64,000 nucleotides of DNA from positions 113-64,112 of the forward strand of contig DAOTWS010000176.1 of the NCBI GenBank assembly GCA_034436195.1. Reading direction: 5' to 3'. The translations under genes and the position numbers were made by a program. The stretch is from Anaerolineae bacterium (GTDB lineage: Bacteria > Chloroflexota > Anaerolineae > Promineifilales > Promineifilaceae). The notes under the pieces were generated by a model that worked only from the letters and a program-made list of their open reading frames with translations, did no database searches and had not been told where the DNA came from. Positions within the stretch are counted from its first letter, which is position 1. Every line of letters begins with the position of its first letter. Below are positions 1 to 64,000 of the stretch, piece after piece.

Positions 1-1
1 A

Positions 2-73
2 ATTAGACAGCAGGCAGGTTTGCCAACTGATGAGTTTGTTGTAGCGGCAGAAAATGGCGCAGAAGCTGAATAA
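2..73 (+). CDS. 3' end of an unidentified CDS entering from the left edge
   Basis: Frame 2 is open from the window edge to TAA 71-73 (...DEFVVAAENGAEAE*) and is followed by a hairpin plus T-run at 119-158. Only 23 codons are visible and no domain is recognisable. Confidence 0.25.
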   Translation: MRQQAGLPTDEFVVAAENGAEAE

Positions 74-118
74 TCAGGCACAATAAATCCAGTTTTCCCT
101 TTGGGAATTCCCAAAAGA

Positions 119-158
119 GCGGGTTTGTCTGTTTCGGAGCAGACAGGCTCGCTTTTTT
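119..158 (+). terminator. rho-independent terminator
   Basis: 13-bp stem GCGGGTTTGTCTG/CAGACAGGCTCGC (three G-U pairs), 8-nt loop, then TTTTTT. Confidence 0.6.
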
Positions 159-179
159 GATTTATGATTGGCGATTCGA

Positions 180-209
180 TTGACCTGACTAGTACTTTTT
201 TCCTATAAT
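180..209 (+). promoter_or_regulatory. sigma70-type promoter TTGACC-18nt-TATAAT upstream of the sensor kinase
   Basis: TTGACC at 180-185 and TATAAT at 204-209. A GGAGGG RBS and the ATG at 259 follow. Confidence 0.55.
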
Positions 210-258
210 GTGAATGATGATTGTATTGAGTGGTTGTTGTAATTGAGGGAGGGATTTT

Positions 259-1662
259 ATGGCAGCGCTAGACAGGAGTAAGGGATATTGGCAAAAAAAG
301 GATAAGACGTCGTGGCGTATTCGGATTGCTGCCTGGGTTTTGCAATATCGCTGGCTGGTCATTTTGTTTATTTCGATGTTGTCGCTGACATTTGAAATCA
401 TCGAACATATTTTTACAGTTCAACATGCTATTGACAGCCATTTTTATCGAGAAATTTTTACGTTTGGGGTGGTGTTTCCGGTATTGTTTGGTTTGTTGTT
501 TGATTTGTTGGCAGAAACGGAAACTGAGCGTAATCGCCTGGCGAGCCAGCAAGATGTAGAGCATTTGTTAAATTTGCAATTGGGGATGGCGCACAATTGG
601 GAGGATTTGTCCCGGTTGCTGGCACGCCTGCCGCGGCAAGTGGTTTCGGAGTTGGTGGGGGTGTGTGGGTATGTGTATGATGTGGAGAATGAGGTACTGG
701 AAACGGCCGTTGTCTGGTACAAACCCTATGTGACCATTTCTACCCAACCGCCAATATTGGACAAGTACCAACGCATTTACCTGCTGAAAAAACCGATACT
801 ACAAAAAGTAACACCAAAGCATTATGCCCAATACATCATCCCCGAAAACTGCAACATCTACTGCCTGCCTCTGACACGTAGTGGCCAACTGGTTGCTATT
901 TTGCATCTGTTCCTGCCTGACCAACTGACAATTTCTTCCGAACAAGCCGAAATACTCAACAATCTGGCCCCGGCGTTGGCACTGGCCATTGATAGCCTGC
1001 ACCCTAAAGGAACAGGCATTATTCGTGCTGCCGCCACCGAAGCAGAACGTCGCCGCCTGGCACGTTATTTACATGACACATTGGGGCAAAATCTGGGGCT
1101 TTTGTGCCTTAAGCTGGATCAGTTACAGGGAAACGATGTCCTGAACGAAGTGGCAGCCATTCGGGAAGAATTGGCACAAATGTACAATGTAGCCAATCAG
1201 GCTTATGAACAAGTGCGGCAAACGCTTACCCAACTCAAACCTGTTTTTCACGAAAACTTGCCGGCAGCATTACGACAAGAAGCAGAGCAGTTTGAACAAC
1301 ATTGGCAGTTACCAATTAATTTAGCAGTGCGTGGAGAGTTAAATATCATTCCTCATGATACCCAAGAAAAAATAATGGGAATTGTGCATGAAGCTTTATT
1401 GAATATTGGTAAGCATGCCCACGCTCATAAGGTCTCGCTTGAGGTAGAGCAGTTGGGAGATATGTTAACTATTACTATAGAGGATGATGGAATCGGATTT
1501 GATCCATTTGGCGATGAACCGGCCGGGCATTATGGGTTGTTGATTATGAAAGAACGAGCGAAGGAGATAAACGGCCGTCTTCACATCCAATCTACACCTG
1601 GTCAGGGTACTATTGTTGTTCTCTCCCTCCCCATTCCTGCACCTGTTCTCACTCCCATCTGA
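259..1662 (+). CDS. sensor histidine kinase, NarX/DegS-like (2-TM N-terminus, GAF-like middle, HisKA_3, HATPase_c)
   Basis: H-box ERRRLARYLHDTLGQNLG. ATPase motifs HEALLNIGKHAHA, DDGIGFD and GHYGLLIMKERA...GQGT. Hydrophobic N-terminus. RBS GGAGGG. Confidence 0.9.
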   Translation: MAALDRSKGYWQKKDKTSWRIRIAAWVLQYRWLVILFISMLSLTFEIIEHIFTVQHAIDSHFYREIFTFGVVFPVLFGLLFDLLAETETERNRLASQQDVEHLLNLQLGMAHNWEDLSRLLARLPRQVVSELVGVCGYVYDVENEVLETAVVWYKPYVTISTQPPILDKYQRIYLLKKPILQKVTPKHYAQYIIPENCNIYCLPLTRSGQLVAILHLFLPDQLTISSEQAEILNNLAPALALAIDSLHPKGTGIIRAAATEAERRRLARYLHDTLGQNLGLLCLKLDQLQGNDVLNEVAAIREELAQMYNVANQAYEQVRQTLTQLKPVFHENLPAALRQEAEQFEQHWQLPINLAVRGELNIIPHDTQEKIMGIVHEALLNIGKHAHAHKVSLEVEQLGDMLTITIEDDGIGFDPFGDEPAGHYGLLIMKERAKEINGRLHIQSTPGQGTIVVLSLPIPAPVLTPI

Positions 1663-1697
1663 TCATCCCCCAATTCCCTGTCAAATAATAATTCTCC

Positions 1698-2696: not shown

Positions 2697-3344
2697 TTGG
2701 AAGTGTCTATGCTGTCAAAGACCGGGAAAATGCGTTGGTCGTCATGGTGGTTGTTTACGGGACTCATGATGATCTTTATAACGCTAGCAGAATTGTTTGA
2801 ACACAAAATGGTTAGCCCGTCCTGGTCTCGCTTTTTGTTGATGACTGAACTGATAGTCAGTGGTGTGGTTATTCCAATGGCATTGGGAGTTGTGTTGAAT
2901 GAGTTGGTAATGGTGAAGGGGCGGGTAATGAGAAAGAAAAATGAGATGGGAAAAACGGCCGTTTCTCCCCCCAAGGTTTTGCTAATTGGCAACGCCTCCC
3001 TCCTGGGTGCCAGCCTGGAACAACTCCTTTGCCAAAAAACCCATTTCCAAATCACCACTATCTCCGCCCCGGCCACACCCAAAGATCTCCTTCAGCAAAT
3101 CAGTCAATACCAGCCAGACACCCTTATCATCAACACCGACCAGATACCAATTACCCCTCAAGTGCTGGCAATTCTGCAAAAACGTTCCCGCTTACGCATG
3201 CTGGCTGTCCAGGGAGAAACCAATGAAATTCAAATCTATGAAAAAGAAACGCTCCCAATCCACAGTACGGCCGATTTCATCCAAAAGTGCAACATCAAAA
3301 CGGCCACTTCCGAATCAAAAAAGGAGGAAAGTCAATGTGAATGA
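2697..3344 (+). CDS. membrane protein: 2-TM module paralogous to the kinase N-terminus, plus a degenerate receiver-like domain
   Basis: TM module ...LAELFEH...GVVIPMALGVVLNEL resembles the kinase ...LTFEIIEH...GVVFPVLFGLLFDLL. The C-terminal part reads VLLIGNASL...PDTLIINTD...LAV, which is receiver-like but lacks the acidic pair. The TTG at 2697 or the ATG at 2709 could be the start. Confidence 0.6.
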   Translation: MEVSMLSKTGKMRWSSWWLFTGLMMIFITLAELFEHKMVSPSWSRFLLMTELIVSGVVIPMALGVVLNELVMVKGRVMRKKNEMGKTAVSPPKVLLIGNASLLGASLEQLLCQKTHFQITTISAPATPKDLLQQISQYQPDTLIINTDQIPITPQVLAILQKRSRLRMLAVQGETNEIQIYEKETLPIHSTADFIQKCNIKTATSESKKEESQCE

Positions 3345-3398: not shown

Positions 3399-6300
3399 AT
3401 GAATGCACAAACAACCATACATACAAAAACAGTTCCTCTGCGTCGGCTCTGGTTAAGCCGACTCATGTTCGTTCTCCTCCTGCTGATTTTGGCACTATTT
3501 GGCTCACAACGTGCCGTCAAATCAGCCTCTACCATTACTCTCGAAGTACGCGAATATGTACCTGGCGCACCTCCTGGTACCGGCCCCCTCATCACCACCT
3601 ACGCCTATCTGGTCAATGAAGATAACACCGGCGATCCATTTGATCCGGACCCTGCCAAACATCCCTCCCTGAAACCAATGGCCAGTTACAGTCCAGTGGT
3701 AGCCATGGGAGACGATACCAGCTCATCGCTTACACTCGATGACGGCCGTTACCTCATCTCCGTTCGTGCCGACGGCTACAAAATGGGAGGCAAACACATT
3801 CGCCTGCCAGACGACTCCGGCACAGTAATCATTGAACTCGTCCCCGAGCCCCTTCCCCTCTCCAAAATCCGCGTTCACGTCTTCCATGACAACAACCCTG
3901 TTAACGGCGAAGACGACATCCCCCGTGAAGAAGGACTCGAAGGATTTCGCGTCATTATCGAAGACGGATCCGGCGAAGTCACCGTAGACTGGTTTGGCAA
4001 CCCACTCTGTACTCAATACGATGGCAACCCCAACGGCAGCACCCCCTTGGGCGACCCCATCCCCGGCACAGGCGGTATTTGCTACACCGACGCCAACGGC
4101 GATCTGGTCATCCCAAACCTGGGCCGCAACAAATACGAAGTCATCGCCATACCACCCGATGGCCAGGAAAACGACTGGATCCAAACCACCACCATCGAGG
4201 GCACTCACGTTATCGACGCATGGGTTGAAGAAGGAAACACAGGCTACAGCCCCCGAGAAGGCTTTCAACAAGCAATGGTCTGGATTGGCTTCGTCCAGCG
4301 ATGCACCTTCGGAGATCCCAACGACACTTGTCCAGCCAACGATACGCCCGGCTCAGGCACAATCATGGGAACCGTCAAAACTGTCATCGAATGGATTCCA
4401 CCCACAGCCCCCCTAATCCTCGGCGATCCCGTAGATCGCCCCTGGATAGCTCTGACAGACATCGGCGGAACCGACCAACAAGTTTATCTGGGGCGAGGCA
4501 ATCCAGATGGCAGTTTTGTTATCAACAATGTCCCTGATGGTGTCTACCAGCTTGTTGTTTGGGATGAACCACTGGATTACATCATCTCTTTCTTCACCGT
4601 TACCGTTGACAGCAGTGTAAACGGTGGCGTCGTTGATATGGGAGAATTTGGAATCCCACGATGGTATGGCTGGATTTCCGGCTATGTATTTTTGGATGAA
4701 AATCGAAACGGCATCAAAGATCCAGGCGAACCGGGTATTCCTCGTGTTGATCTGGACACACGATTCCGTGACGGTTCGATCCAATACACAACTGTAACTG
4801 ACGAAAACGGCTACTACGAATTCCCCGAAGTCTTCGAGTTAGAAAAGTTTGCTGTTGCTGAAGTAGGATTCGGCCGTATGGGGACCAGTGGCGCATCTGT
4901 CCATGATGAATACAACACCAACCTCATCAAATCTGTCCATCCGGATGTCCTTACTCTGGCCGAATTAACGTGGGCAGCCAAGCGGAGCATTATTGATTGG
5001 GGCAAATTCAACTATTTGCCTGGCGAAAACGGCGGCATATCCGGAATCGTTTACTACGCCACAATGCGCAACGAAACAAATGCCCAACTTGCAGCCGCAG
5101 AAGATTATGAACCGGGCGTTCCCAATGTCACTGTTCGTCTCTACGACGAAACCGGCACTATCTTGCTTAACGAAACTCAAACTGATGCCTGGCAGCATCC
5201 AACCAATTGTGATTATCTGGATGCAAATGGGTTGCCCGTTCCTGATCCGCTAGATCTCGGTCCAAAGTGCGTAGAAGTTCCCAACATATCCAATGAAGTT
5301 AAGGATGGTGTGTTTGATGGTGGCTACGCGTTCAATAGTTACTGGACACCATACTATGGTGCGCCAGGAGCAACAGAAGTAACAGGATTGCCGCCAGGGA
5401 ACTATGTTGTTCAGGTTGTGCCCCCTCCATTCTTTAAGGTGCTGGAAGATTCTGATGTGAACACGTCGGATGGAAACCAGGTAACCCCAAATGGGCCAGC
5501 TATTAACATTCCCGCAGCAGGCTGTTCTGGTGGAGACTGCTCCAAACGCATTGTTACTTTACAAGAAGGACAAAATGCGGCGGCAGATTTCTTCTTGTTA
5601 ACGGAAAATGCCGTGCCCATTCCAGGTCGAATTTTTGGCTTCTTGCTGGATGACCTGAATATCGAAACCGATCCCAACTTTATTTACTACGGTGAGAAGC
5701 GGGGGATTCCGTTCACGCCTGTAGGAATTCGGGATTTTACTGGTCGGCTAATCACTACAGTGTATTCGGATGAGAATGGTATTTTTGAGGTGTTGCTCCC
5801 ATCCACTTTTGTGGCAAATTGCCCAACACCAGGCGGTGTTTGTCCAGCTATTTATCATGTAGTGGGCAACGATCCGGGGGATCCAGGTAATCCTAACCCT
5901 GGCTATAACCCCAATTATCAGACATTGACGTTTACATTTGATGTCTGGCCGGGTAAGACAACGTATGCCGATGTGGCGTTGTTCCCTATTACTGCATTTA
6001 CTGCTGGTGGAGGGGGGCAGTTTAACCAACCGGCGCAATGTAATTTGCCGGATGGTACACCTGAGTTATGGGCAGTATCTCAGCCTTATGGCAGTGTCGG
6101 GGATTCGTTTACGATTACCGGTGTGAATTTTGGGGCGACACAGGGGAGTGGTTCTGTAACGATTGATGGTGTGCCGTTGTTGGTAAATTCGTGGTCGGAT
6201 ACGCTGCTGGATGTCACGATTCCTCCGGGATTTTCTGCAGGGGCGGGACAGTTGATGATTACGGCCGATAATGGTCTGAGTACGGTCAATGGGTTGACGT

Positions 6301-8261
6301 TCCACGTGTTGGGAATGGGTTATAACCCAACTGTTGTTAATGTGTATCCTGATCCAAATCCCGCGGCTACCCCGATTCAGAATGCTATTGATGCGGCTTT
6401 TGGGAATACGCTGATTGTAGTAAATCCGGGTGTTTACTATGAGAGTATTACGCTGAATAAGGGGCGTGTGAAGTTGCAGGGCGTTGGGCCAGGTGAGCCA
6501 ACGTTGGGTACAGGCGGCTCGGTATTGGATGAACGGTTTGCAGTGGAAAGTATTATTGTTACCGGTGCACCTAATACGTTTGGGCCGCTGTTTAATCCGC
6601 AAATTGATGGATTTAAGATTACAGGTGGACGTGATCAGCAAGATGTTGGTGGCGGGTTGCATGTAGATGTAAACGGCCGTTATCTGGAAATCAGCAACAA
6701 CATCATCCAAAGCAACGGCGGCAACTTCGGTGGCGGCATCACCATTGGCGAACCATATCGGGGCGACAACAACAACGACCGCATCCGCATTCACCATAAC
6801 CGTATCCTCAACAACGGCGGCATCAGCCTGGCCGGTGCTATCGGCATCTTCAATGGTGCCAACCAGTACGAAATCGCCTACAACGAAATTTGCGGCAACT
6901 ATTCGGCCGAGTACGGTGGTGGTATCTCTCACTTCGGTCTCAGTCGTCAGGGCAGCATCCACCACAACAAAATCTACTACAACAATGCCTTTGATGAAGG
7001 TGGTGGCATCCTGATCGCTGGTGAACAATTCTTCAACCCCGAAAATCCAAACGAACCAGCACCTAACCTTACCGTTGGATCTGGCGAAGTGGACATCTAC
7101 AACAACCTGATTCAATCCAACCTGTCCAATGACGATGGGGGCGGTATCAGGCTCTTACAGCCCTGGGACTACAGAATCCGCATCTTCAACAACATTATCG
7201 TAAACAATGTCTCCACTGATTTTGGCGGTGGCATTGCCCTCGACGATGCCTCAGACGTTCTCATCATGAACAATACGATCGCCAAAAACGTCAACACTTC
7301 CACTGCCGAAGACTCAGACGGATTACCACACGCCGCTGGACTAACAGCCGAGGCTTATAGCACCCAATTCACCAACTATCTGGTAAATACCTATGGCTCA
7401 GCTGCTCCTGGTTTCCCCGATCCAGTCATGTTCAACAACATTTTCTGGGAAAATCAGGCTTATACCTGGGATGGCCTGCAACTGGTATTTAACAGCATCA
7501 TGGACATGGAAGTGTTTGGGACGATTACACCTGCCTCTTTTACCGGTCATCCCAGCAACATGATCGGTGTCAACCCACAGTTTGTATCACCTTATGATAC
7601 GGTATTGGATGCAGTAGCCTTCCGCATGGAGCCAAACTTTATCACTGTGGTATATGTGACAGTTGATCTGACGGCCGCTTTGCCGGGCAACTATCATCTG
7701 ACAGGTGGTTCTCCAGCTGTTGATGTAGGTGTGTCTTCACTGGGGCCAATTGCTGCCCCGGCAGATGATATTGATGGTGAATCCAGACCACAAAATGGCC
7801 TGTTTGACGTTGGCGCAGATGAATTGACAGGAACACCGCCGCCGCCACCACCAACACCAACGCCACCACCACCGACACCCACACCATTACCCACGCCTAC
7901 GCCCCCACCCACACCGACACCACCACCGCCAGCAGGCTGCACAACAAATTGTCTGCGTGTGACAAGTATTGATTTGACACCATTTGTGCGTGGTAATAAC
8001 GGCCGTGTTCGGGCAGTCATCACCGTACGCGATGAAAACAACATACCAGTAGAAAATGCACGCGTATATGTCACCTGGACATTGCCCAATACCACTACCC
8101 CCCTCACACTAAATGAAGGCACAAACGGACAAGGACTTGTGCGCTTCATGGCAGAAGATGGATTAGGCACTTACACCATCACAATTGATGACATCACACT
8201 AGGAGGCTACACCTTTGACACAACCAATAGCGTACTAAGTGCGACCATCACCATACCATAA
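3399..8261 (+). CDS. 1620-aa secreted multidomain protein: SdrD-B/CarboxypepD_reg-like beta-sandwiches, IPT/TIG, right-handed parallel beta-helix (PbH1) repeats, Pro/Thr linker, C-terminal beta-sandwich
   Basis: - N-terminal hydrophobic signal/anchor.
- GYVFLDENRNGIKDPGEPGI...TDENGYYEF (SdrD-B-like).
- FTITGVNFGATQGSGSVTIDGVP...LTFHV (IPT/TIG).
- Repeated NNxIxxNxGxxGGGI beta-helix turns.
- DIDGESRPQNGLFDVGADE tail.
- A PT-rich linker. Confidence 0.85.
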   Translation: MNAQTTIHTKTVPLRRLWLSRLMFVLLLLILALFGSQRAVKSASTITLEVREYVPGAPPGTGPLITTYAYLVNEDNTGDPFDPDPAKHPSLKPMASYSPVVAMGDDTSSSLTLDDGRYLISVRADGYKMGGKHIRLPDDSGTVIIELVPEPLPLSKIRVHVFHDNNPVNGEDDIPREEGLEGFRVIIEDGSGEVTVDWFGNPLCTQYDGNPNGSTPLGDPIPGTGGICYTDANGDLVIPNLGRNKYEVIAIPPDGQENDWIQTTTIEGTHVIDAWVEEGNTGYSPREGFQQAMVWIGFVQRCTFGDPNDTCPANDTPGSGTIMGTVKTVIEWIPPTAPLILGDPVDRPWIALTDIGGTDQQVYLGRGNPDGSFVINNVPDGVYQLVVWDEPLDYIISFFTVTVDSSVNGGVVDMGEFGIPRWYGWISGYVFLDENRNGIKDPGEPGIPRVDLDTRFRDGSIQYTTVTDENGYYEFPEVFELEKFAVAEVGFGRMGTSGASVHDEYNTNLIKSVHPDVLTLAELTWAAKRSIIDWGKFNYLPGENGGISGIVYYATMRNETNAQLAAAEDYEPGVPNVTVRLYDETGTILLNETQTDAWQHPTNCDYLDANGLPVPDPLDLGPKCVEVPNISNEVKDGVFDGGYAFNSYWTPYYGAPGATEVTGLPPGNYVVQVVPPPFFKVLEDSDVNTSDGNQVTPNGPAINIPAAGCSGGDCSKRIVTLQEGQNAAADFFLLTENAVPIPGRIFGFLLDDLNIETDPNFIYYGEKRGIPFTPVGIRDFTGRLITTVYSDENGIFEVLLPSTFVANCPTPGGVCPAIYHVVGNDPGDPGNPNPGYNPNYQTLTFTFDVWPGKTTYADVALFPITAFTAGGGGQFNQPAQCNLPDGTPELWAVSQPYGSVGDSFTITGVNFGATQGSGSVTIDGVPLLVNSWSDTLLDVTIPPGFSAGAGQLMITADNGLSTVNGLTFHVLGMGYNPTVVNVYPDPNPAATPIQNAIDAAFGNTLIVVNPGVYYESITLNKGRVKLQGVGPGEPTLGTGGSVLDERFAVESIIVTGAPNTFGPLFNPQIDGFKITGGRDQQDVGGGLHVDVNGRYLEISNNIIQSNGGNFGGGITIGEPYRGDNNNDRIRIHHNRILNNGGISLAGAIGIFNGANQYEIAYNEICGNYSAEYGGGISHFGLSRQGSIHHNKIYYNNAFDEGGGILIAGEQFFNPENPNEPAPNLTVGSGEVDIYNNLIQSNLSNDDGGGIRLLQPWDYRIRIFNNIIVNNVSTDFGGGIALDDASDVLIMNNTIAKNVNTSTAEDSDGLPHAAGLTAEAYSTQFTNYLVNTYGSAAPGFPDPVMFNNIFWENQAYTWDGLQLVFNSIMDMEVFGTITPASFTGHPSNMIGVNPQFVSPYDTVLDAVAFRMEPNFITVVYVTVDLTAALPGNYHLTGGSPAVDVGVSSLGPIAAPADDIDGESRPQNGLFDVGADELTGTPPPPPPTPTPPPPTPTPLPTPTPPPTPTPPPPAGCTTNCLRVTSIDLTPFVRGNNGRVRAVITVRDENNIPVENARVYVTWTLPNTTTPLTLNEGTNGQGLVRFMAEDGLGTYTITIDDITLGGYTFDTTNSVLSATITIP
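7831..7936 (+). repeat. Pro/Thr low-complexity linker coding repeat
   Basis: Encodes GTPPPPPPTPTPPPPTPTPLPTPTPPPTPTPPPPAG from CCN/ACN-rich degenerate repeats. Confidence 0.8.
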
Positions 8262-15996: not shown

Positions 15997-16136
15997 TATT
16001 GGGCGTGACTTTTGCGAACATTATGCGACAATATTAATAAAGTCGTGTTTGAAACGGCCGTGTCTCGCATCATACACCACATCCCAGCCACATATCCATC
16101 CCGGCAAACATTCAGCCACCCATTTATATAAGCCAT

Positions 16137-53907: not shown

Positions 53908-54810
53908 CTAACGCTTGCCTGACCGCCGTTTGCGTTTGGATTGTGGTCTGGTCTTTTTAGGCGGCTTGTTGTTTGCTGCTGGTGCCTGAGATTCATCAAT
54001 AGGTTCCGGATCTGGCATTGGTTCTGGTTCTGGAATAGCGTCCGATGGCGCAGAAACGGCCGTTTGTGCCTCCGCCTCTGCTTCACGTGCCATCACCTGT
54101 CGCATATACACACCCTGGAAAATACCAATTATGTTCGACAACACAAAATAAATAGACAATCCTGCCTGAAACTGCAAGGAGAAAAAGCCAAACATAATCG
54201 GCATGGTATATTGCATTGACTGAGTCATTGCCGCCGTTGGGTCATCTTGCTGTTTCTTATTATCTGCCTGCGGACGATTAGCCGTTGGCGAAAGAAACTT
54301 CTGCTGCAAATACATGGTAGCAAATACCAACACCGGCAAAACAAACAATGGATCGGGTTGTCCCAAATTCATCCACAAGAACCGATTGGAAATTGGCAAC
54401 AATTGGCTCAAGTCAATGCCTGGATATACCCGTTGCGTGAGCAAAAAGAGTGACTGGGGTGTTGAACTCAAAACCAAACGCAACACCTGAAACAGGCCAA
54501 ACAAAACCGGCATCTGAATCAGCAATGGCAAACACCCACCCAGTGTTTCGGCAGGGTTGTAGCCAATCTTCTGAAACTCCTCTTGCATCTTTTGCGGATT
54601 ATCCCGATACTTTTTCTGAATGGCCTGAATCTGCGGTTGCAGCTTCTGCATTTTCATGCTGGAACGCTGCTGGCGAATGTTCAGAGGAAGCGTTAGCAAC
54701 CGGATAAGAATTGTAAACACCGTAATGGCCAACACAAAGTTGTTGCCCAGAATGGCATAGAGCCACAACAATGCATTGGTCATGGGATTGATGATTAGTA
54801 AGTCCCACAT
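53908..54810 (-). CDS. yidC: membrane protein insertase YidC (short form) with a basic tail
   Basis: ILIRLLTLPL...QKLQPQIQAIQKKY...GCLPLLIQMPVLFGLF...MQYTMPIMFGFF. Confidence 0.92.
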   Translation of the reverse strand: MWDLLIINPMTNALLWLYAILGNNFVLAITVFTILIRLLTLPLNIRQQRSSMKMQKLQPQIQAIQKKYRDNPQKMQEEFQKIGYNPAETLGGCLPLLIQMPVLFGLFQVLRLVLSSTPQSLFLLTQRVYPGIDLSQLLPISNRFLWMNLGQPDPLFVLPVLVFATMYLQQKFLSPTANRPQADNKKQQDDPTAAMTQSMQYTMPIMFGFFSLQFQAGLSIYFVLSNIIGIFQGVYMRQVMAREAEAEAQTAVSAPSDAIPEPEPMPDPEPIDESQAPAANNKPPKKTRPQSKRKRRSGKR

Positions 54811-54837: not shown

Positions 54838-55983
54838 TTATTCTGACGCGGCAGGCAAGAATGCCCATTGCTGACCACCTGTCACCAGGTCAAAGGCCAT
54901 TAGCAATGCCTGCTCGCTTTGCATGGCTACAACAATTACATTATCAACGACGACAGGTGTGGCAAACAAAGGGGCAGGGGTTGTTTTTTGCCATTTTACT
55001 TGTCCGTTTGTCACATCAAGCGCCGAAAGCACCCCCTGACCAGTTTCCTTGTTTCCTTCGGAAACAATGTAGAGAGTGTCGTTAACCACAATGGGAGAAG
55101 CTGTCACTGCCCCTTCAACTTGCTGTACCCAGAGACGTTCGCCGGAATCGGCCGTTACTGCATATACGTTTCCGTCAATATCAGCATAGTATAGGGTATC
55201 ACCATTTAGTGCTGGTGCACCCCACACCCAATTTTCAGCTTCGGCAGCCCATTTTTCCTGGCCAGTTTCTTCATCCAAGGCATGTACCTTGCCATCAAAA
55301 CTGGAAACATATATTAGCCCGGAATCAACAACCGGTTGGCTGGCTATAGCACCTTGTAGTTCCTGGCGCCAAATCCGATTGCCTGACTGGGCATCTACAG
55401 CATGCACGGCTTTATCCAGAGAAGCGACATAAACGATACCGTTTTTATAAGCGGGTTGTGCCCACACGCTGTTTTCCAGTTCATATTGCCATTGGAGAGA
55501 ACCGGTGTTGGCATCGAGGGCTAATAGTTTGTTATCGGCCGTTCCCACATACACCGTATCTTCTACTTGCAACGGCGGCGCTACGATATGGTCCTGTGCC
55601 AGCCCATCTTGCTGCCATAGTAATTCTGGCGAACTGCTATCCGTGTCTTGCAATGCGTAAATACTGGCAATGACGCCTGGGGAGAACATACCGCCAGACG
55701 CGCCGTAGTCACCGATGATGATACGGCCGTTTTGCACCGATGGCGCCGCATAAAATTGCAATGTTCTATTTGGTTCTTCAGGAAAACTCCAGACCTGGGT
55801 CTGTTTTTCAACATCGTACGCAATAACACCCGGACCATAAGCGATGTAAATGCGTTTGCCATCAGTGGAAAGACCCGGCCAGTTTGTATTGGCAATTCCG
55901 CCAGAACAGGCAGCCAAAAATATGCTGGTCAGAATGAGAATAAATATTGCAGGCCGCAAAAACGGCCGTTTCGCTGTGTACAA
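54838..55983 (-). CDS. PQQ-like (BamB-type) beta-propeller repeat lipoprotein
   Basis: Lipobox FLAACSG. Repeated ...YV(G/A)(T/S)xDxxxxAxDaxtGxxxW... blades. Confidence 0.8.
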   Translation of the reverse strand: MYTAKRPFLRPAIFILILTSIFLAACSGGIANTNWPGLSTDGKRIYIAYGPGVIAYDVEKQTQVWSFPEEPNRTLQFYAAPSVQNGRIIIGDYGASGGMFSPGVIASIYALQDTDSSSPELLWQQDGLAQDHIVAPPLQVEDTVYVGTADNKLLALDANTGSLQWQYELENSVWAQPAYKNGIVYVASLDKAVHAVDAQSGNRIWRQELQGAIASQPVVDSGLIYVSSFDGKVHALDEETGQEKWAAEAENWVWGAPALNGDTLYYADIDGNVYAVTADSGERLWVQQVEGAVTASPIVVNDTLYIVSEGNKETGQGVLSALDVTNGQVKWQKTTPAPLFATPVVVDNVIVVAMQSEQALLMAFDLVTGGQQWAFLPAASE

Positions 55984-56208: not shown

Positions 56209-56592
56209 CTAAACCCCACTGGCCACGTCATTTGTGCGAGAAGTCGCCTGAGGGGAGCGGTAAAGACCAGCACGGGAAAGCAACGCCAAAACGGCCGTTT
56301 CCACTTCCGCATACGAAACAGCCGCTGTCTGCTCCCGGGCAATCAGCACCACATCCCACCCAGCCTCAATTTCGTCCAAATGACGCCGCACAACCTCCCG
56401 CAACAATCGTTTTGCCCGATTGCGGGAAGTAGCCTTACCTACACGTCGGCTGGCCACAAACGCAAACCGACTTACCTCTTCAGCATTAGCTTGCACCAAC
56501 AAAATAGCCAGGGGATGACGCCAGCTTCGACCCAATTGCCTGACGCGCTCCAAATCAGTGGCGCGACGTAAACGGTGGCACTGGGGAAGCAT
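56209..56592 (-). CDS. rnpA: ribonuclease P protein component
   Basis: [24 protein letters not shown]. Located downstream of rpmH. Confidence 0.9.
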
Positions 56593-57010: not shown

Positions 57011-57075
57011 ATGAAGATTGGCGTGGGTGAAAGAACGGCCGTTTCCCACCCTCACAACCAACACCCATCACTCAA

Positions 57076-58485: not shown

Positions 58486-59262
58486 ATGCCTTTTATTAAG
58501 TTGGGAAATCAGGATTTATTTTTTGCACAACATATTCCTCGCAATGCGAAGCAGGTATTGATTTTGGTACATGGGGCAGGTGGTTCGCATCTGGATTGGC
58601 CGGCAGAGGTGCGGCGTTTGCCAGAAACGGCCGTTTTTGCTCTGGATCTGCCCGGACACGGCCGTTCATCTAAACCGGGTCGTACCAGTGTCTCAGGCTA
58701 TGCCCAAATTGTCCACGAGTTCATCGAAACCCTTTACCTGGAAAATGTTGTCGTTGCCGGTCATTCGATGGGTGGAGCCATTGCGCAAACGATTGGCTTA
58801 CGGCAATTGCCCCAGGTTGCTGGCCTGATTCTTGTGGGCACAGGTGCTCGTCTGCGTGTTACCGACGCGATATTGGGGAGTATTTTGCGTGATTTTGATG
58901 CCGCTGTGCAGACAATTACCCAATTAGCCTGGGCACCTGATGCACCACCGGAATTGGTGGCCAAGGGGAAGGAGATGTTGGCCCACAATGACCCCAATGT
59001 ATTATTTGGTGATTACAACGCCTGCAACCAATTTGATGTTATGAATCAACTGGGCAAAATCAATGTGCCTGTGCTAGTGATTAGCGGCACAGCAGACCAG
59101 CTGACACCGATGAAATACGGCCGTTACCTGGCCGACAACATTCCCCATGCCCAACTCGTCACCATTGACGGGGGTGGACACATGATGGCCCTTGAACAAC
59201 CTCAGGCTGTGGCACAAGCCATCACCAAATTCCTGAACACACTCAAAACATCCAAACATTAA
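58486..59262 (+). CDS. alpha/beta hydrolase
   Basis: LILVHGAGGS, nucleophile elbow VVAGHSMGGAIA, and GGHMMALEQP. Confidence 0.85.
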   Translation: MPFIKLGNQDLFFAQHIPRNAKQVLILVHGAGGSHLDWPAEVRRLPETAVFALDLPGHGRSSKPGRTSVSGYAQIVHEFIETLYLENVVVAGHSMGGAIAQTIGLRQLPQVAGLILVGTGARLRVTDAILGSILRDFDAAVQTITQLAWAPDAPPELVAKGKEMLAHNDPNVLFGDYNACNQFDVMNQLGKINVPVLVISGTADQLTPMKYGRYLADNIPHAQLVTIDGGGHMMALEQPQAVAQAITKFLNTLKTSKH

Positions 59263-59272: not shown

Positions 59273-61399
59273 ATGAGCTTAAAAACCGATCCCACACTTT
59301 CCCCCTTTTTCACACCAAAGGGTGTTGTTCTCGTTGGTGCATCCCAAAATCCTGCCAAACTCGGTTTTGGTCTGGCACGAAACCTTGTTCAGAGCGGATA
59401 TCGGGGTGCCATTCATTTTGTTAGCCCACGTGGGGGCACCTTGCTGGAACGCCCCATTTACACCAGCATTGCGGCTGTGCCCGATCCGGCAGACCTGGCT
59501 GTACTCCTCATTCCGGCACCAGTTGTCCCACAAGCATTACAAGAATGTGGTAAACGAGGAATTCGTGCAGTTATCATTGCCTCTGGTGGTTTTCGGGAAA
59601 CTGGTGCAGAAGGAGCGGCTCTGGAAACGCAATGTTTACAAATTGCGCGCACATATGGTATTCGTCTGGTTGGGCCAAACTGTATTGGTATCCTGGATAC
59701 TCATGTGCCCATTGATACAACCTTTTTGCCACCACCCGGCCCCACCCCAGGAGATGTGGCTTTCATTTCACATTCAGGGGCAATTTGTGCGGCTGTTATT
59801 GACTGGGCACGCGGACAGGGGTTTGGTCTTTCTCGCCTGGTTAGCCTGGGTAATCAGGTGGATGTGCAGGAAACAGATATGCTGGCGCCGGTAGCATCTG
59901 ATCCATATACGCATGTTATTACGTTGTATCTGGAAGGAGTAAGTGACGGCCGTCGCTTTGTGGCCGAAGCTGCCAGGGTGACGCGGGAGAAACCTATTGT
60001 TGCTCTGAAAGTCGGCCGTTTTGCCAGCGGCCAAAAGGCTGTTGCCTCTCATACTGGGGCATTGGCCGGTCAGGAATCAGCTTTTGATGCCGCATTCCGG
60101 CGGGCTGGCGTTATTCGAGCCGACACCAGCGAAGAACTGTTTGACTGGGCACGTGCATTGGCCTGGTGTCCACCACCAAAGGGGCGACGTGTGGCCGTCC
60201 TGACCAACGCTGGTGGGCCTGGTGTAACAGCAGCAGATGCACTGGAAGCTCACAAGCTGGAACTAGCCGAATTGACACCAGAAACAGTAACCGCTCTGAA
60301 AGAGATTTTGCCCCCAGCAGCCAGTTTGCGAAATCCTGTTGATATGCTGGCTGGTGCTACTCCGACACAGTATGCTGAATGTTTGCGTATTTTGCTGGCC
60401 GATCCAAATGTGGACAGTGTGTTAATGATTTTGCCGCCACCTCCAATGGATTCAGCGGGTGGTGTTGCCCGGGCCACAATTCCGATTATCTATGCGGCAA
60501 CCAAACCGGTTGTGGTGGCGCTGATGGGCGAACGGATGATTCAGGAAGCTGTAGAGCATTTTCGGGCAGCAAAGGTGCCCGAATATCGGTTTCCGGAACG
60601 GGCAGCAGCGGCGCTGGCTATGTTAACGGCACGGGCAGATTATTTGCAGAAGCCGCCTCAGGAAGCGGTGCGGGTGACAGATGTGGACAAGGCTTGTGTA
60701 GCGCGGTTGTTGGCTGAATATGAAATATCGCTGGAAAATGGCGGTTTTTTGCCACAAACGGCCGTTTCCCAAATCATGACAGCATATGGCATCCCGGTGC
60801 CACCCGTCGTGCTGGCACACACACCCGAAGAAGCTGTACACCTCGCTCGTCAGTTTGGCCAACCTGTCGCCCTCAAAGTAGCTTCGCCTGACATCCCGCA
60901 TAAATCGGATGTTGGTGGGGTACTGTTACATCTTATGGGAGACGAAGCAGTAGCTCGTGGCTTTGAACAAGTGGTGACTAATGCACGTACGGCTGCGCCA
61001 ACGGCCGTTATCCAGGGCGTCCACATTCAACCAATGATCCTGGACGGCCAGGAAGTAATTGTAGGTGCTGTCCAAGACCCTCAATTTGGCCCGTTACTGA
61101 TGTTCGGCTCGGGCGGAGTAGAAGTGGAAGGACTAAAAGATGTAGCATTTTCGCTAGCCCCACCCACACAAGCAGAAGCAGATTATTTGCTGGCAAGCAC
61201 ATGGGCAGGACGGAAACTGGATGGATACCGGCAAATACCCGAAGGAGACAAAATGGCCGTGCTCGACATCATCTACCGACTAGGGCAACTCGCCGCCGAC
61301 TTCCCCCAACTTGCCGAAATAGAAATCAACCCCCTGCGCGTCCTGGAAAAAGGAAAAGGCGCATACGCCATTGACATACGCGCCCGCCTCAAACCATAA
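59273..61399 (+). CDS. ADP-forming acetate/acyl-CoA ligase, fused alpha-beta (CoA-binding, CoA-ligase, ATP-grasp)
   Basis: FFTPKGVVLVGASQNPAKLG...GPNCIGIL...SHSGA...VASHTGALAG, with a C-terminal ATP-grasp region (VALKVASPDIPHKSDVGGV). Confidence 0.88.
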   Translation: MSLKTDPTLSPFFTPKGVVLVGASQNPAKLGFGLARNLVQSGYRGAIHFVSPRGGTLLERPIYTSIAAVPDPADLAVLLIPAPVVPQALQECGKRGIRAVIIASGGFRETGAEGAALETQCLQIARTYGIRLVGPNCIGILDTHVPIDTTFLPPPGPTPGDVAFISHSGAICAAVIDWARGQGFGLSRLVSLGNQVDVQETDMLAPVASDPYTHVITLYLEGVSDGRRFVAEAARVTREKPIVALKVGRFASGQKAVASHTGALAGQESAFDAAFRRAGVIRADTSEELFDWARALAWCPPPKGRRVAVLTNAGGPGVTAADALEAHKLELAELTPETVTALKEILPPAASLRNPVDMLAGATPTQYAECLRILLADPNVDSVLMILPPPPMDSAGGVARATIPIIYAATKPVVVALMGERMIQEAVEHFRAAKVPEYRFPERAAAALAMLTARADYLQKPPQEAVRVTDVDKACVARLLAEYEISLENGGFLPQTAVSQIMTAYGIPVPPVVLAHTPEEAVHLARQFGQPVALKVASPDIPHKSDVGGVLLHLMGDEAVARGFEQVVTNARTAAPTAVIQGVHIQPMILDGQEVIVGAVQDPQFGPLLMFGSGGVEVEGLKDVAFSLAPPTQAEADYLLASTWAGRKLDGYRQIPEGDKMAVLDIIYRLGQLAADFPQLAEIEINPLRVLEKGKGAYAIDIRARLKP

Positions 61400-61408: not shown

Positions 61409-62020
61409 TCATCCCAATTCCCGAATCACTCGCTGTAAAAGCGGCGCAATTTGCCGCAAAGCTCGACCACGATGACTGATTTGATGCTTTACAGACGATG
61501 GCAACTCAGCCATCGTCTTCTTTCTCTCCGGCAAATAAAAAACAGGATCATACCCAAACCCCCCTTCTCCGGCAGGCTCCAGGGCAATCATCCCCTCACA
61601 CACACCTTCGGCCGTTCCCAAAAGCACCCCACCAACACCCGCCAAAGCAATCACACACCGAAAACGCGCCCCCCGTTTCGCCCACGGCACATCTGCCAAA
61701 CGCATCAACAACAAACGATACCGCTCCTCATGAGACAACCCTTCTCCACCAAACCGCGCCGTATAAACGCCAGGCGCACCACCCAAAGCATCCACCTCCA
61801 AACCCGAATCATCTGCCAACGTCAACAAACCCGTCAGTCTTGCATACGCTTGCGCCTTCAAAATCGCATTCTCTGCAAACGTGCTCCCCGTCTCTGGCAC
61901 ATCTTCTGTAACTCCCACATCATCCAAATTGCACCAACTCACATCCAATTCTGACAACATTTCCGCGTATTCCCGCACCTTTCCCTTATTGTGCGTCGCT
62001 ACCAACAGCTTCACATTCAT
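61409..62020 (-). CDS. rdgB: dITP/XTP pyrophosphatase (RdgB/HAM1)
   Basis: KLLVATHNKGKVREY...ETGSTFAENAILKA...ADDSGLEVDALGGAPGVYTARF...GFGYDPVF. RBS GGGAGG. Confidence 0.92.
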   Translation of the reverse strand: MNVKLLVATHNKGKVREYAEMLSELDVSWCNLDDVGVTEDVPETGSTFAENAILKAQAYARLTGLLTLADDSGLEVDALGGAPGVYTARFGGEGLSHEERYRLLLMRLADVPWAKRGARFRCVIALAGVGGVLLGTAEGVCEGMIALEPAGEGGFGYDPVFYLPERKKTMAELPSSVKHQISHRGRALRQIAPLLQRVIRELG

Positions 62021-62067
62021 CCTGCCTCCCAAACTTGTGAGTAAATTACCCTCTTTTGAACGAACTA

Positions 62068-62076
62068 TGCTATACT
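62068..62076 (+). promoter_or_regulatory. extended -10 element TGCTATACT upstream of yceD
   Basis: TGn plus TATACT, 40 nt upstream of the ATG at 62116. No clear -35. Confidence 0.35.
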
Positions 62077-62115
62077 GAATTGCTTAATTTTACAGAAAAG
62101 AAGGAAATAAGACCG

Positions 62116-62634
62116 ATGGGTATCAATCACCTTTCCCGGTTACGTTTCAATTTCGGCTTTCTTCTGGAAGCTGCTATGGGAACCAGTCGTGAAATCGAAC
62201 TGGCTTACCCAACAATTCAGATAGAAGAAGTCACATTAACACCATTACGGGGCAAATTCCAGGCCACCCGTACTTCAGAAGGCATCTATCTGACGGGTAC
62301 ATTGTACAGTACAATTCCGACAGAATGCGTTCGCTGCCTGGAAACAATGAACCTGAATATTACGATTCAACTGGATGAATTGTTTTATCATCCACCATTT
62401 GGCGCACCAGAAGGAGCGTCTGTCATTGGCGACAGTGGGATTATTGATCTGGAACCACTGGTACGGGAGTTGGCCTTACTGGAGGTGCCAATGCAACCAA
62501 TTTGTCGTCCAGATTGTCAGGGATTGTGTATGGAGTGTGGGCACAATCTGAATCTGGGTGATTGTGGATGTGAGGAAGATGACATCGATCCTCGTTTGTC
62601 TATTCTGCAGCAATTACTGAAGGGAGAAGAGTAG
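62116..62634 (+). CDS. YceD-family (DUF177) protein
   Basis: CVRCLE...CRPDCQGLCMECGHNLNLGDCGC. Confidence 0.85.
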   Translation: MGINHLSRLRFNFGFLLEAAMGTSREIELAYPTIQIEEVTLTPLRGKFQATRTSEGIYLTGTLYSTIPTECVRCLETMNLNITIQLDELFYHPPFGAPEGASVIGDSGIIDLEPLVRELALLEVPMQPICRPDCQGLCMECGHNLNLGDCGCEEDDIDPRLSILQQLLKGEE

Positions 62635-62659
62635 ATTCGTCCTTTTTCACGGTTAGGGT

Positions 62660-63922
62660 ATGTTTTACGACAAAGCTAAAATTTATATTAAGAGTGGTGA
62701 TGGCGGCGATGGCATGATTAGCTTTCGCCGCGAAAAGTATGTGCCGTTTGGTGGGCCAGATGGTGGCGATGGTGGTCACGGGGGGGATATTGTCTTTGTG
62801 GCTGATAATAATTTGAGCAGTCTGGTGCGCTATCATCGCCAGGTTCATTTTCGGGCAGGCAGTGGCAAGCATGGGGGTAAGTCACGTAAGACTGGGGCAA
62901 ATGGGGAGTCTTTGCGGTTGCCTGTGCCTGTAGGAACTATTATTCGTCATGCAGAAACAGGTGAAATACTGGCAGACTTGACGGAGCATGGGCAGGAAGT
63001 GGTGATATTGCGTGGGGGACGGGGTGGTCGAGGTAATATTCATTTTGCCAATAGTGTTAATCAGGCGCCACGTTTGGCCGAGCGGGGTGAACCTGGTGAG
63101 GAAATGTGGGTTACTCTGGAGCTGAAGTTGATTGCGGATGTGGGGATTGTGGGTGTGCCCAATGCCGGGAAGTCTACTCTTTTGTCAGTGGTGAGTGCGG
63201 CCAAGCCGAAAATTGCCAATTATCCGTTTACTACGTTGCAGCCCAATCTGGGGGTGGTGACGCTGGATGATTATGAAACGATGGTGTTGGCAGATATTCC
63301 CGGATTGATTGAGGGGGCTGCAGAAGGTGTGGGGCTGGGACATGATTTTTTGCGTCATATTGAGCGAACGCGGGTGTTGATTCATTTGCTGGATGGGGCG
63401 GCTCAGGATCCGTTGGAGGATTGGGCAATGGTGAATCAGGAGTTGGCGTTGTATGATGTGGCGCTGGAGAAGAAGCCGCAGTTGGTGGTGTTGAATAAGA
63501 TTGATTTACCGGATGCGCAAGCGTGGGAGCCGTTGGTGAAGGAGGCGGTAACGAAGGCGGGGTTTAAGTTTTGTTCGATTTCGGCCGTTACTGGTCAGGG
63601 TGTGCGCGATATGTTGTACCGTGTGAAGAGGATGCTTGATGCTGCTCCACGGCCTAAGCTTTTTGTGGAGGAGGTTGCAGTCATTCGTCCGGAAATTGAT
63701 GAGGATGTGTTTACGATTGAACGAGAGGAGGATGGCTGGCGTGTGCGTGGTAAAAAGATTGAGCGTATTGCAGCCATGACTTATTTTGAGTTTGATGCCA
63801 CATTGATGCGTTTTCAGCGAATTTTGGATAGTATGGGGATTACAGAGGCGTTGGAGGCGGCGGGGGTGCAGCCGGGTGATACGGTTTATATTGGTGATCA
63901 GGTTTTGGAGTGGAGCGAATAG
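62660..63922 (+). CDS. obg: GTPase Obg/CgtA
   Basis: [42 protein letters not shown]...[11 protein letters not shown]...DIPGLIEGA...NKID..., with a C-terminal OCT domain. Confidence 0.96.
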
Positions 63923-64000
63923 GTTTATTGGGGGGAACGTTTGATCCGCCACATGTGGGGCATTTGTGGCTGGCGGAAACGGCTCGTGATCAGTTGGCTT
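63910..64000 (+). CDS. nadD: nicotinate-nucleotide adenylyltransferase, 5' end (runs off the window)
   Basis: The GTG at 63910 overlaps the obg stop by 13 nt. The frame reads (M)[29 protein letters not shown]. Confidence 0.75.

Follow-up and report, generated by a model that had tools for sequence, protein, structure and literature searches.

A sawtooth of GC skew centred on an iterated octameric palindrome in a Chloroflexota genome

What could make the strand composition of a bacterial genome reverse abruptly in the middle of intact genes, many times within a single contig? The question is raised by a stretch of 64,000 nucleotides (nt) from an Anaerolineae bacterium of the Promineifilaceae, phylum Chloroflexota (assembly GCA_034436195.1, contig DAOTWS010000176.1, positions 113 to 64,112), hereafter called the window, which is metagenome-assembled and has 50.7% G+C. 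The commonest octamer of this window is ACGGCCGT, a perfect palindrome, and an earlier sequence-only reading had claimed that GC skew flips from G-rich to C-rich exactly at its copies. The flip is confirmed here, being stronger and more regular than first noted, and the sections below follow it from single copies to related genomes and to the processes that may cause it.

The skew flip at single copies

In a meta-profile with 20-nt bins, which is not flat, GC skew lies between +0.10 and +0.16 over the 100 nt left of ACGGCCGT and between -0.20 and -0.30 to its right, while the mean of the window is -0.045. Using flanks of 10-210 nt, the left-minus-right GC skew at the 81 sites is 0.288, compared with 0.00 ± 0.025 for random sets of 81 positions (z = 11.4) and with values between -0.06 and +0.12 for palindromic control 4-mers and 6-mers. 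The left flank has the higher skew at 70 of the 81 copies when 200-nt flanks are used. Hand counts made in the sequence-only reading at 703, 2955, 6673, 19742, and 22173 were reproduced exactly, including T30/A25 and T15/A28 at 22173, and the sites it had listed as exceptions, G-rich or C-rich on both sides, are as described on recount. The motif is also recovered when it is not used in the search: in a blind scan for the largest downward jumps of third-codon-position skew, a perfect ACGGCCGT lies within 60 nt of 16 of the 18 strongest jumps, mostly at no more than 13 nt, where the 60-nt neighbourhoods of all copies make up ~16% of the window. Upward jumps of the same size number four in the window, three of them at gene boundaries. 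One downward third-position jump (0.91), near 37238, has no ACGGCCGT inside 1.2 kb, the nearest similar word being CCCGCCGT at 37272, and may be a decayed site or a gene-boundary effect. A skew switch at a replication origin or terminus was rejected as an explanation, as the window holds 70 downward flips in 64 kb, each at a palindrome.

The word itself is strongly over-represented, with 81 copies against 0.96 ± 0.92 expected from dinucleotide-preserving shuffles, a density of 1.27 per kb or one copy per ~750 nt. Highly iterated palindromes are defined by an over-representation of at least 16-fold (PMC5861425), and ACGGCCGT, as an octameric perfect palindrome above this excess, belongs to this general class while being distinct from its cyanobacterial member, highly iterated palindrome 1 (HIP1). 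Open reading frames (ORFs) hold 79 of the 81 copies, with all three frames used (37:29:13), and 58 copies lie in plus-strand genes and 21 in minus-strand genes. The spacing is Poisson-like, with a coefficient of variation of ~1, and no regular spacing of copies was found in the window. Around the copies, a weak extended palindrome, roughly GGRAA-ACGGCCGT-TTYCC, reaches ~5 nt beyond the octamer. Hairpins or mobile-element arms were ruled out, as the arm complementarity within one site equals the between-site control beyond the motif. Elements of the repetitive extragenic palindrome (REP) or miniature inverted-repeat transposable element (MITE) type have tens of bases in common, fold into imperfect hairpins, and lie mainly between genes; a repeat of this type was likewise ruled out by the ~5 nt of weak consensus, the lack of arm homology, and the 79 intragenic copies. 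In the window, the half-cognate variants TCGGCCGT (14 copies) and ACGGCCGA (13 copies), 27 positions together, are found at more than 10 times the chance level, while the other one-mismatch words of ACGGCCGT are at chance level.

The flip differs between codon positions, being largest at position 3, weaker at position 1, and nearly nil at position 2. Genes were taken as long stop-to-stop ORFs, a few of which are shadow ORFs, e.g., 56131-56571 (plus strand), which shadows rnpA. Across the site, the third-position GC skew falls from +0.21 to -0.45 in plus-strand genes and from 0.00 to -0.51 in minus-strand genes. Naming the strand that runs 5' to 3' toward the nearest ACGGCCGT inbound and the one running away from it outbound, the inbound strand has a third-position GC skew of +0.2 to +0.45, whether sense or antisense, from the site out to more than 600 nt. 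The strand ending 3' at the site is thus the G-rich one on both sides; this geometry is firm, and the comparison of its polarity with that of a replication terminus, made in the sequence-only reading, is geometrically correct. The excess of T over A that had been noted beside the excess of G over C does have the same sign but is weak, TA skew being about one third the size of GC skew. Similarly, the shift in amino-acid usage is modest and sets Met, Cys, Trp, and Val against Ile, His, and Pro, with its direction inverted in minus-strand genes; Met, Trp, Val, His, and Pro had been named before, whereas Gly, also named, is barely affected. Words containing G are all enriched roughly multiplicatively, which matches a per-base bias. 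Gene orientation and codon usage were ruled out by stratification for strand and codon position and by comparing orthologues with and without a site (see below), and the flip looks like a mutational or repair imprint rather than a coding effect.

Selection instead of mutation has also to be considered, in that a G-rich lead-in on both strands could be favoured because it serves what the site does, e.g., loading of a recombinase, binding of a protein, or formation of a DNA structure. The conservation of sites above background and the extended motif formed by their immediate flanks agree with this. However, the effect has a kilobase reach at synonymous third positions of housekeeping genes, where weak selection on thousands of silent sites is implausible, complementarity is no higher between the two arms of a site than between arms of different sites, and the enrichment of G-words is what a per-base bias would give. 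Such selection is regarded as very improbable.

Practically no credence is given to the pattern being an artefact or a confound, whether from gene orientation, codon usage, motif composition, mobile-element arms, or misassembly at palindromes, and the controls reject it. Two circumstances would suit it, namely the metagenomic assembly of the contig and the 58 of 81 sites in plus-strand genes. Yet both gene orientations flip, including at codon position 3, the same codon shows no flip in genomes without the site, and the flip is found in more than 40 independent assemblies from many studies. Moreover, reading frames cross the sites unbroken, a 1627-codon ORF spanning three of them, and inversions at the sites are therefore excluded; the composition of the half-site does not set the polarity, the arms lack homology, and control palindromes are flat.

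Between adjacent copies, the third-position skew climbs nearly linearly and then drops sharply at the next ACGGCCGT, giving a sawtooth. The amplitude of the ramp grows with the gap, from -0.32 to +0.20 in gaps of 100-400 nt and from -0.75 to +0.63 in gaps of 1.5-5 kb, and within the single-gene intervals 3742-6673, 44052-47117, and 50141-53019 smooth third-position ramps lead from -0.8/-0.9 to +0.7/+1.0. The range of 100-400 nt that had been proposed is accordingly too short, as the ramp extends from one copy to the next, over as much as 3 kb. When G versus C at third positions is modelled by logistic regression, with each of the two flanking copies exerting an exponentially decaying effect opposed to that of the other, the log-likelihood is 628 units above that of a model without sites; the decay length is 0.4-0.8 kb and the amplitude ~2 logit units, roughly a 7-fold shift in odds; a two-exponential nearest-site model fits somewhat better than a pure ramp. 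Bacterial skew is typically below ~0.2, while the third-position amplitude here is 0.8-0.9. As the sawtooth averages about zero per inter-site interval, the predicted distortion of cumulative-skew plots for origin finding was overstated, and the sawtooth adds noise to them.

A linear sawtooth with an amplitude rising with interval length is also what would be predicted if second-strand or Okazaki synthesis were primed at the palindromes, as it is at the hairpin O_L in vertebrate mitochondrial DNA, so that the time spent as single-stranded DNA varied in a sawtooth manner; among known cases, the skew gradients of mitochondrial DNA come closest to a skew that depends on distance. However, a right-moving fork would expose the displaced top strand longest just right of the priming site, and the usual deamination bias would then give an upward jump, G-rich just after the site on the displaced strand, opposite to what is observed. 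Oxidation of G would invert the GC jump but give TA skew of the opposite sign, whereas the observed sign is that of GC skew. In addition, priming predicts a one-sided sawtooth dependent on fork direction, and the sawtooth seen here swings equally to both sides of zero, between -0.8 and +0.8. Hardly any weight is therefore given to priming.

The 81 copies of ACGGCCGT are listed below by coordinates, without strand, with the GC skew of the 200 nt to the left and to the right at all positions; cp3 stands for codon position 3.

703..710: clear flip, +0.42/-0.32
1571..1578: clear flip, +0.38/-0.37
2955..2962: clear flip, +0.43/-0.51
3742..3749: no step in 200-nt flanks, begins 2.9-kb ramp, -0.24/-0.25
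6673..6680: clear flip, jump score 1.50, +0.37/-0.19
7999..8006: flip at cp3 only (cp3 jump 0.96), -0.35/-0.12
8610..8617: weak flip, +0.08/-0.09
9182..9189: flip, +0.08/-0.28
10402..10409: strongest cp3 jump (1.72), +0.32/-0.41
10600..10607: no flip, 198 nt past preceding copy, -0.41/-0.35
13064..13071: flip, +0.37/-0.15
13413..13420: weak flip, -0.09/-0.26
13961..13968: flip, +0.18/-0.26
14275..14282: no flip, close-set copies, -0.35/-0.10
14479..14486: weak flip, -0.12/-0.20
14701..14708: flip, -0.16/-0.47
15215..15222: flip, -0.11/-0.39
15904..15911: flip, +0.10/-0.22
16054..16061: flip, +0.04/-0.53
17562..17569: no flip, -0.11/-0.02
17736..17743: flip, +0.06/-0.32
18321..18328: flip, -0.04/-0.23
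18841..18848: weak flip, -0.04/-0.08
19561..19568: in minus-strand gene, flip, +0.12/-0.10
19742..19749: in minus-strand gene, flip, -0.01/-0.39
20854..20861: in minus-strand gene, flip, +0.13/-0.33
21452..21459: in minus-strand gene, flip, +0.26/-0.10
21645..21652: in minus-strand gene, flip, -0.05/-0.21
22173..22180: within panE, flip, +0.10/-0.47
22650..22657: flip, -0.06/-0.40
23980..23987: flip, G-rich background, +0.51/+0.09
24383..24390: flip, +0.36/-0.30
24443..24450: flip, +0.13/-0.24
24934..24941: in minus-strand gene, flip, +0.20/-0.11
25201..25208: weak flip, -0.07/-0.12
25606..25613: weak flip, -0.11/-0.18
25754..25761: flip, -0.11/-0.61
27649..27656: in minus-strand gene, flip, +0.44/-0.23
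27743..27750: flip, +0.17/-0.31
27845..27852: no flip, close-set copies, -0.21/-0.19
28210..28217: no flip, -0.08/-0.08
28355..28362: flip, -0.10/-0.25
28746..28753: flip, -0.20/-0.39
28820..28827: weak flip, -0.31/-0.40
30129..30136: flip, +0.13/-0.21
31387..31394: flip, +0.36/-0.32
32188..32195: within GAPDH, weak flip, +0.06/-0.04
32707..32714: no flip, -0.21/-0.21
33611..33618: weak flip, G-rich background, +0.45/+0.27
33806..33813: flip, +0.32/-0.39
34079..34086: intergenic, no flip, -0.28/-0.24
34752..34759: flip, +0.14/-0.10
35190..35197: flip, +0.04/-0.33
35265..35272: flip, -0.08/-0.33
36041..36048: weak flip, -0.19/-0.29
39626..39633: no flip, both sides G-rich, +0.28/+0.38
40064..40071: weak flip, both sides G-rich, +0.27/+0.22
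40690..40697: flip, G-rich background, +0.43/+0.15
40881..40888: flip, +0.19/-0.20
42277..42284: flip, +0.38/-0.09
42438..42445: flip, +0.07/-0.32
44052..44059: flip, begins 3.1-kb ramp, -0.01/-0.30
47117..47124: flip, +0.27/-0.01
48660..48667: flip, +0.45/-0.02
48850..48857: flip, +0.02/-0.24
49399..49406: flip, +0.19/-0.38
50091..50098: flip, +0.06/-0.41
50141..50148: flip, begins 2.9-kb ramp, +0.02/-0.45
53019..53026: flip, +0.45/-0.01
53622..53629: in minus-strand gene, flip, +0.01/-0.23
54056..54063: in minus-strand gene, flip, +0.12/-0.17
55723..55730: no flip, -0.08/-0.04
55962..55969: weak flip, 0.00/-0.04
56291..56298: flip, +0.04/-0.37
57035..57042: intergenic, directly past murA, flip, -0.01/-0.55
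58627..58634: flip, +0.26/-0.02
58658..58665: flip, +0.22/+0.02
59117..59124: flip, +0.03/-0.33
59946..59953: weak flip, +0.25/+0.11
60758..60765: flip, +0.26/-0.08
61001..61008: no flip, -0.04/+0.05

Site dependence and palindrome dialects among relatives

In a species-level collection, the genomes nearest to the window are those of uncultured Chloroflexota listed as Ardenticatenaceae or Candidatus Promineifilaceae, with a YvcK-like protein (79% amino-acid identity) as the best match. Strains close enough to polarise single-nucleotide polymorphisms were sought and none was found, the best matches having 79% and 76% amino-acid identity. Orthologues were compared in 15 codon-aligned groups drawn from the window and from 22 related loci in which ACGGCCGT is iterated as well. 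At aligned columns with a copy in one genome or more, the third-position skew of genomes bearing the site is +0.20 on the upstream side and -0.20 on the downstream side (n = 187), while genomes without it have 0.00 and -0.04 (n = 546), or -0.10 and +0.01 if no other copy is nearby (n = 257). The flip is thus seen just in genomes carrying the site at that position, and where a relative has a copy and the window does not, the window shows its usual upward ramp. The flip depends on the presence of the site and not on the place in the gene, and it is equally strong for lineage-specific and widely shared copies. In orthologue-aligned genome pairs, the site is kept at the same position in 45.5% of cases versus 8-9% for other octamers, and the sites are therefore maintained, while any given aligned position is shared, on average, by just a quarter of genomes. 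GC content at third codon positions (GC3) is 0.03-0.08 higher within ~100 nt of ACGGCCGT than more than 450 nt away, in the window as in its relatives, which hints at a repair or conversion step.

Relatives also iterate other words, at 0.7-2 copies per kb, and some, such as L031-L033 and L035-L040, have no iterated palindrome at all. The survey of these dialects below pools genome and metagenome loci and gives third-position skew; z-scores are from single loci.

ACGGCCGT: 34 loci, 579 kb, 849 copies; left +0.19, right -0.10
GCGGCCGC: 4 loci (L020, L034, L028, L087), 99 copies; left-minus-right 0.18
CCGGCCGG: 2 loci (L027, L101); left-minus-right 0.14
TGCCGGCA: 1 locus (L024); left-minus-right 0.29, z 4.2
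CGCCGGCG: 2 loci (L043, L105); left-minus-right 0.09, z 2.3
GCCGCGGC: 2 loci (L100, L107); left-minus-right 0.08
No iterated palindrome: remaining loci; left-minus-right 0.016

All six words are perfect palindromes, and the five variants flip with the same polarity as ACGGCCGT, so that the polarity tracks the palindrome of each genome. The left halves of TGCCGGCA and CGCCGGCG are C-rich while their left flanks are G-rich, which shows that the polarity belongs to the process and not to the composition of the motif. At isolated NCGGCCGN sites, which have one cognate outer base, the values by side are +0.01 and +0.04, compared with +0.17 at isolated full sites, and no flip was seen at half-cognate sites pooled over 33 loci; the whole octamer is needed. 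The flanks of TGCCGGCA and CGCCGGCG and the half-cognate sites without a flip also ruled out that the palindromes happen to sit where G-rich DNA meets C-rich DNA. As had been proposed from the window, the process is reverse-complement symmetric, centred on the palindrome, and independent of coding strand and gene boundaries, a claim upheld by the third-position flip on both strands, the site dependence in orthologues, the dialects, and the blind jumps. The cores of the dialect words are CGGCCG or GCCGGC and resemble targets of type II restriction-modification enzymes such as EagI (CGGCCG), NotI (GCGGCCGC), and NaeI (GCCGGC).

Dialects among related genomes, together with conservation of the sites above background, are likewise what would be expected of an uptake or processing signal for natural transformation. 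Incoming DNA would be cut or engaged at the site, the strand with its 3' end there would be imported on each side, and damage to that strand or its biased correction would be copied into the chromosome, while uptake bias would drive the copy number of the motif. The density of ~1.3 per kb, within and between genes, resembles that of the DNA uptake sequence (DUS) of Neisseria and the uptake signal sequence (USS) of Haemophilus, and import with the 3' end first would yield the observed polarity. Moreover, methylated HIP1 in homology arms raises transformation of Synechococcus PCC 7002 more than 100-fold overall, according to a preprint of 2024 that also proposes a part for HIP1 in uptake or processing (doi 10.1101/2024.09.10.611283). 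However, the known uptake sequences are non-palindromic and have no reported local skew flips, HIP1 itself shows no flip, and third-position G:C ratios near 1:10 would require transformation to dominate synonymous evolution genome-wide. An uptake signal is considered quite improbable.

What may act at the palindrome

Any process that repeatedly leaves the strand with its 3' end at the site as the surviving template would give the observed polarity. Candidates are a nick or break with 5'-to-3' resection and refilling, long-patch nick translation, a two-way Chi-like signal, and import of the 3'-ended strand in transformation. The reading favoured here, tentatively and with a probability of roughly 40%, is that a site-specific enzyme acting as a dimer opens the palindrome, after which the outbound strand is removed in the 5'-to-3' direction and synthesised anew. 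It is preferred because every dialect is a perfect palindrome, because the whole octamer is required, and because the specificity has switched repeatedly among relatives. Words that are all palindromes fit a homodimer that reads duplex DNA, in which a single change in the protein alters the two half-sites together, and repeated switching of specificity is typical of recognition of the restriction-modification type.

In this proposal, each exact 8-bp palindrome would be a recurrent start point of a strand-polar DNA transaction. A dimeric sequence-specific protein, probably of a restriction- or modification-associated kind with a specificity that differs between related genomes, would bind the full octamer in duplex DNA and open it by a nick or a break. 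On each side, the outbound strand would then be removed and resynthesised over a few hundred to ~1000 bases, either by 5'-to-3' resection and gap filling or by long-patch nick translation, and the inbound strand would thereby be used repeatedly as a single-stranded or unproofed template. The changes that become fixed would differ between the strands, with G and, to a slight degree, T accumulating on the inbound strand and C on the outbound one. As the palindrome would make the two sides mirror images, the top-strand skew would drop at the site, and the opposed effects of neighbouring sites would sum to the ramp between them. The nick or break, the strand removed, the kind of enzyme, and the chemistry of the bias are inferences.

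The chemistry was compared at fourfold sites between genomes with and without a copy, where pairs are non-independent and synonymous sites are near saturation. Pooled over relatives, G on the inbound strand rises from 0.303 to 0.379 when the site is present, at the cost of C, A, and T, while the window alone shows loss of C to T, A, and G, plus gain of G. It could be speculated that the gain of G and the local rise in GC3 reflect a GC-biased or C-inserting fill-in or correction, with C placed opposite a damaged template.

Several points weigh against the favoured enzyme. The net flows are 798 for C to G, 440 for T to G, and 410 for A to G but just 51 for C to T, and a net gain of G with almost no C-to-T change is not textbook cytosine deamination in single-stranded DNA. 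An effect that halts at the next site fits slightly better than one that passes through (5875.5 versus 5880.8), and simple resection does not predict such a halt. A cut site would be expected to erode, yet ACGGCCGT is 80-fold over-represented, and a separate or linked drive, e.g., conversion toward the site, or selection must be assumed for its abundance. Events that start at random and stop at sites give an equivalent net formula, and the shape of the curve therefore cannot separate starting from stopping. Searches of the window and of 2.1 Mb of related loci turned up no gene for a nuclease, a methyltransferase, or a Vsr-like protein. Finally, all data are metagenome-assembled sequence and inform on the mechanism at the level of geometry.

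The second and fourth of these points lead to a different role for the palindrome, that of a stop or switch, like a two-way Chi or a protein roadblock. Helicase-nuclease or other translocating events would start randomly, at breaks or gaps, and halt at the first palindrome, with the strand ending 3' at the site spared and recombinogenic. The formula for random starts halted at flanking sites is exactly the best-fitting nearest-site model, growth of the amplitude with interval length is predicted and observed, and the geometry of Chi places the single-stranded tail on the inbound, G-rich strand. The over-representation of ACGGCCGT is Chi-like, its conservation is above background, and a preprint suggests that HIP1 may act in a Chi-like manner in transformation (doi 10.1101/2024.09.10.611283). 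On the other hand, the known Chi sites are asymmetric and read as single-stranded DNA, while the six words here are all palindromes and point to dimeric recognition of duplex DNA. Resynthesis of the degraded side would presumably expose the opposite strand and partly cancel the effect, there is no flip at HIP1, and GC3 and G peak beside the sites, so that a model with the lowest activity near the site needs extra assumptions. A stop or switch is judged unlikely, though less so than the other rivals.

Three processes were named in the sequence-only reading, i.e., resection with deamination, Vsr-type patch repair, and biased gene conversion. Its polarity logic holds, while sequence alone cannot tell the three apart and the mechanism is not established. 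Deamination of C to T was said to give exactly this pattern, but what changes is chiefly the share of G, which grows at the cost of C, T, and A, and GC3 is raised near the sites. The decay length of 0.4-0.8 kb far exceeds a Vsr-type patch.

The genes scanned in the window offer no candidate enzyme: Pfam and NCBIfam scans of 40 of its 52 ORFs returned housekeeping and transport genes only, the gene calls at its right end are housekeeping too, and motif scans for C5-methyltransferases and Vsr across the 2.1 Mb of loci gave no match. Among the genes are a two-component system, a large surface protein, a copper-resistance cluster, PPK2, a SulP transporter, ABC transporters, panB, panC, panD, panE, three Hsp20 genes, GAPDH, murA, and rpmH-rnpA-yidD-yidC-jag, the last a set that adjoins dnaA and oriC in many bacteria. 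Three groups are as follows.

8239-15996: copper-handling cluster, three multicopper-oxidase-like ORFs followed by a CopC-CopD fusion protein
26057-27528: three tandem Hsp20/alpha-crystallin genes
53100-56900, minus strand: cluster rpmH-rnpA-yidD-(PQQ beta-propeller)-yidC-jag

Known systems and significance

The closest relative of ACGGCCGT by type is HIP1 (GCGATCGC) of cyanobacteria, also an octameric palindrome in tens-fold or greater excess, at about one copy per kb, located within genes in all frames as well as between genes, with lineage variants and conservation above background (PMC5861425). It differs in word and phylum, ACGGCCGT being from Chloroflexota (relatives in Ardenticatenaceae/Promineifilaceae), and HIP1 is tied to orphan methyltransferases (CGATCG, GATC), whereas no methyltransferase was found in the window or loci studied here. 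No flip was seen at 85 copies of HIP1 (left-minus-right -0.015 ± 0.032 at third positions) in a small, mostly plasmid sample of two 50-kb segments of Nostoc PCC 7120 plasmid alpha and one metagenome locus, and on these 85 sites, mostly from one plasmid, the flip was rejected as a general property of iterated palindromes. Positions 100001-150000 of Gloeothece verrucosa PCC 7822 plasmid Cy782201 contain zero GCGATCGC; Gloeothece PCC 7822 is reportedly an exception among HIP1-bearing cyanobacteria, which fits this absence.

Replication-associated GC skew, as known from oriC and ter, from human N-shaped domains, and from vertebrate mitochondrial DNA, is alike in having a G-rich strand with a weaker excess of T over A and a sharp switch at a fixed point with gradual change between switches, the polarity at ACGGCCGT being that of a terminus. 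However, it acts at the megabase scale and its switches are tied to replication landmarks, whereas here the period is ~0.75 kb, with 81 switch points per 64 kb tied to an 8-bp palindrome. Chi, acting with RecBCD or AddAB, is also an over-represented octamer and marks the start of a 3'-ended single strand that matches the G-rich strand here, but it is asymmetric, orientation-dependent, biased for replication strand, and read as single-stranded DNA; an asymmetric word of the Chi type was ruled out, as ACGGCCGT and its five variants are all perfect palindromes. We know of no local skew sawtooth at Chi. DUS (Neisseria) and USS (Pasteurellaceae) also occur at about one per kb throughout genes, in species dialects, and they presumably accumulate by a molecular drive; the 1.27 copies per kb and the dialects GCGGCCGC, CCGGCCGG, TGCCGGCA, CGCCGGCG, and GCCGCGGC agree with such sequences in density and variation, while DUS and USS, unlike ACGGCCGT, are non-palindromic. 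To our knowledge, no polar compositional footprint has been described for them. Finally, Vsr at Dcm sites and MutH at GATC likewise involve a palindromic modification site that is nicked and then resynthesised 5' to 3', and Vsr biases oligonucleotide frequencies toward its own site. Yet Vsr patches measure ~10 nt, compared with the decay over 0.4-0.8 kb at ACGGCCGT, and the excision directed by MutH has no set direction with respect to GATC; we know of no skew flips caused by either.

The word "skew" is absent from the two main papers on highly iterated palindromes, and in the full-text literature searched, with most subscription journals outside its coverage, no description was found of the octamer, of iterated palindromes associated with skew or in Chloroflexi, or of a sawtooth skew. 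The polar skew sawtooth on an iterated palindrome thus has no described counterpart in that literature, though an earlier description is possible.

The pattern is a natural read-out of where a process that starts or ends at a defined 8-bp site takes place, in which direction, and over what length, thousands of times per genome, and it allows the long-standing question of the role of hyper-abundant palindromes to be tested directly. In these genomes, a local DNA process outweighs the effects of replication, transcription, and codon usage on synonymous sites and leaks into protein composition, which is relevant to codon-usage models, phylogenetics, and dN/dS in these lineages, to skew-based origin finding, and to checks for misassembly. 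We consider it slightly better than an even bet that, in a family of Chloroflexota, thousands of palindromes per genome are acted on by a constitutive, site-specific DNA-processing system not described before, which launches or bounds strand-polar transactions with a mutational or conversion footprint that dominates synonymous composition. If the agent were a nicking or cutting enzyme with an easily changed 8-bp specificity, it would be of interest as a tool. If such a system exists, its transactions would reach hundreds of bases on both sides of the site, and its recognition specificity would have changed several times among relatives, while third-position G:C would swing from ~1:10 to 10:1 within single genes and amino-acid usage would shift measurably. 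This would be the strongest local strand asymmetry in bacteria known to us and a new way in which a short motif may shape a whole genome.

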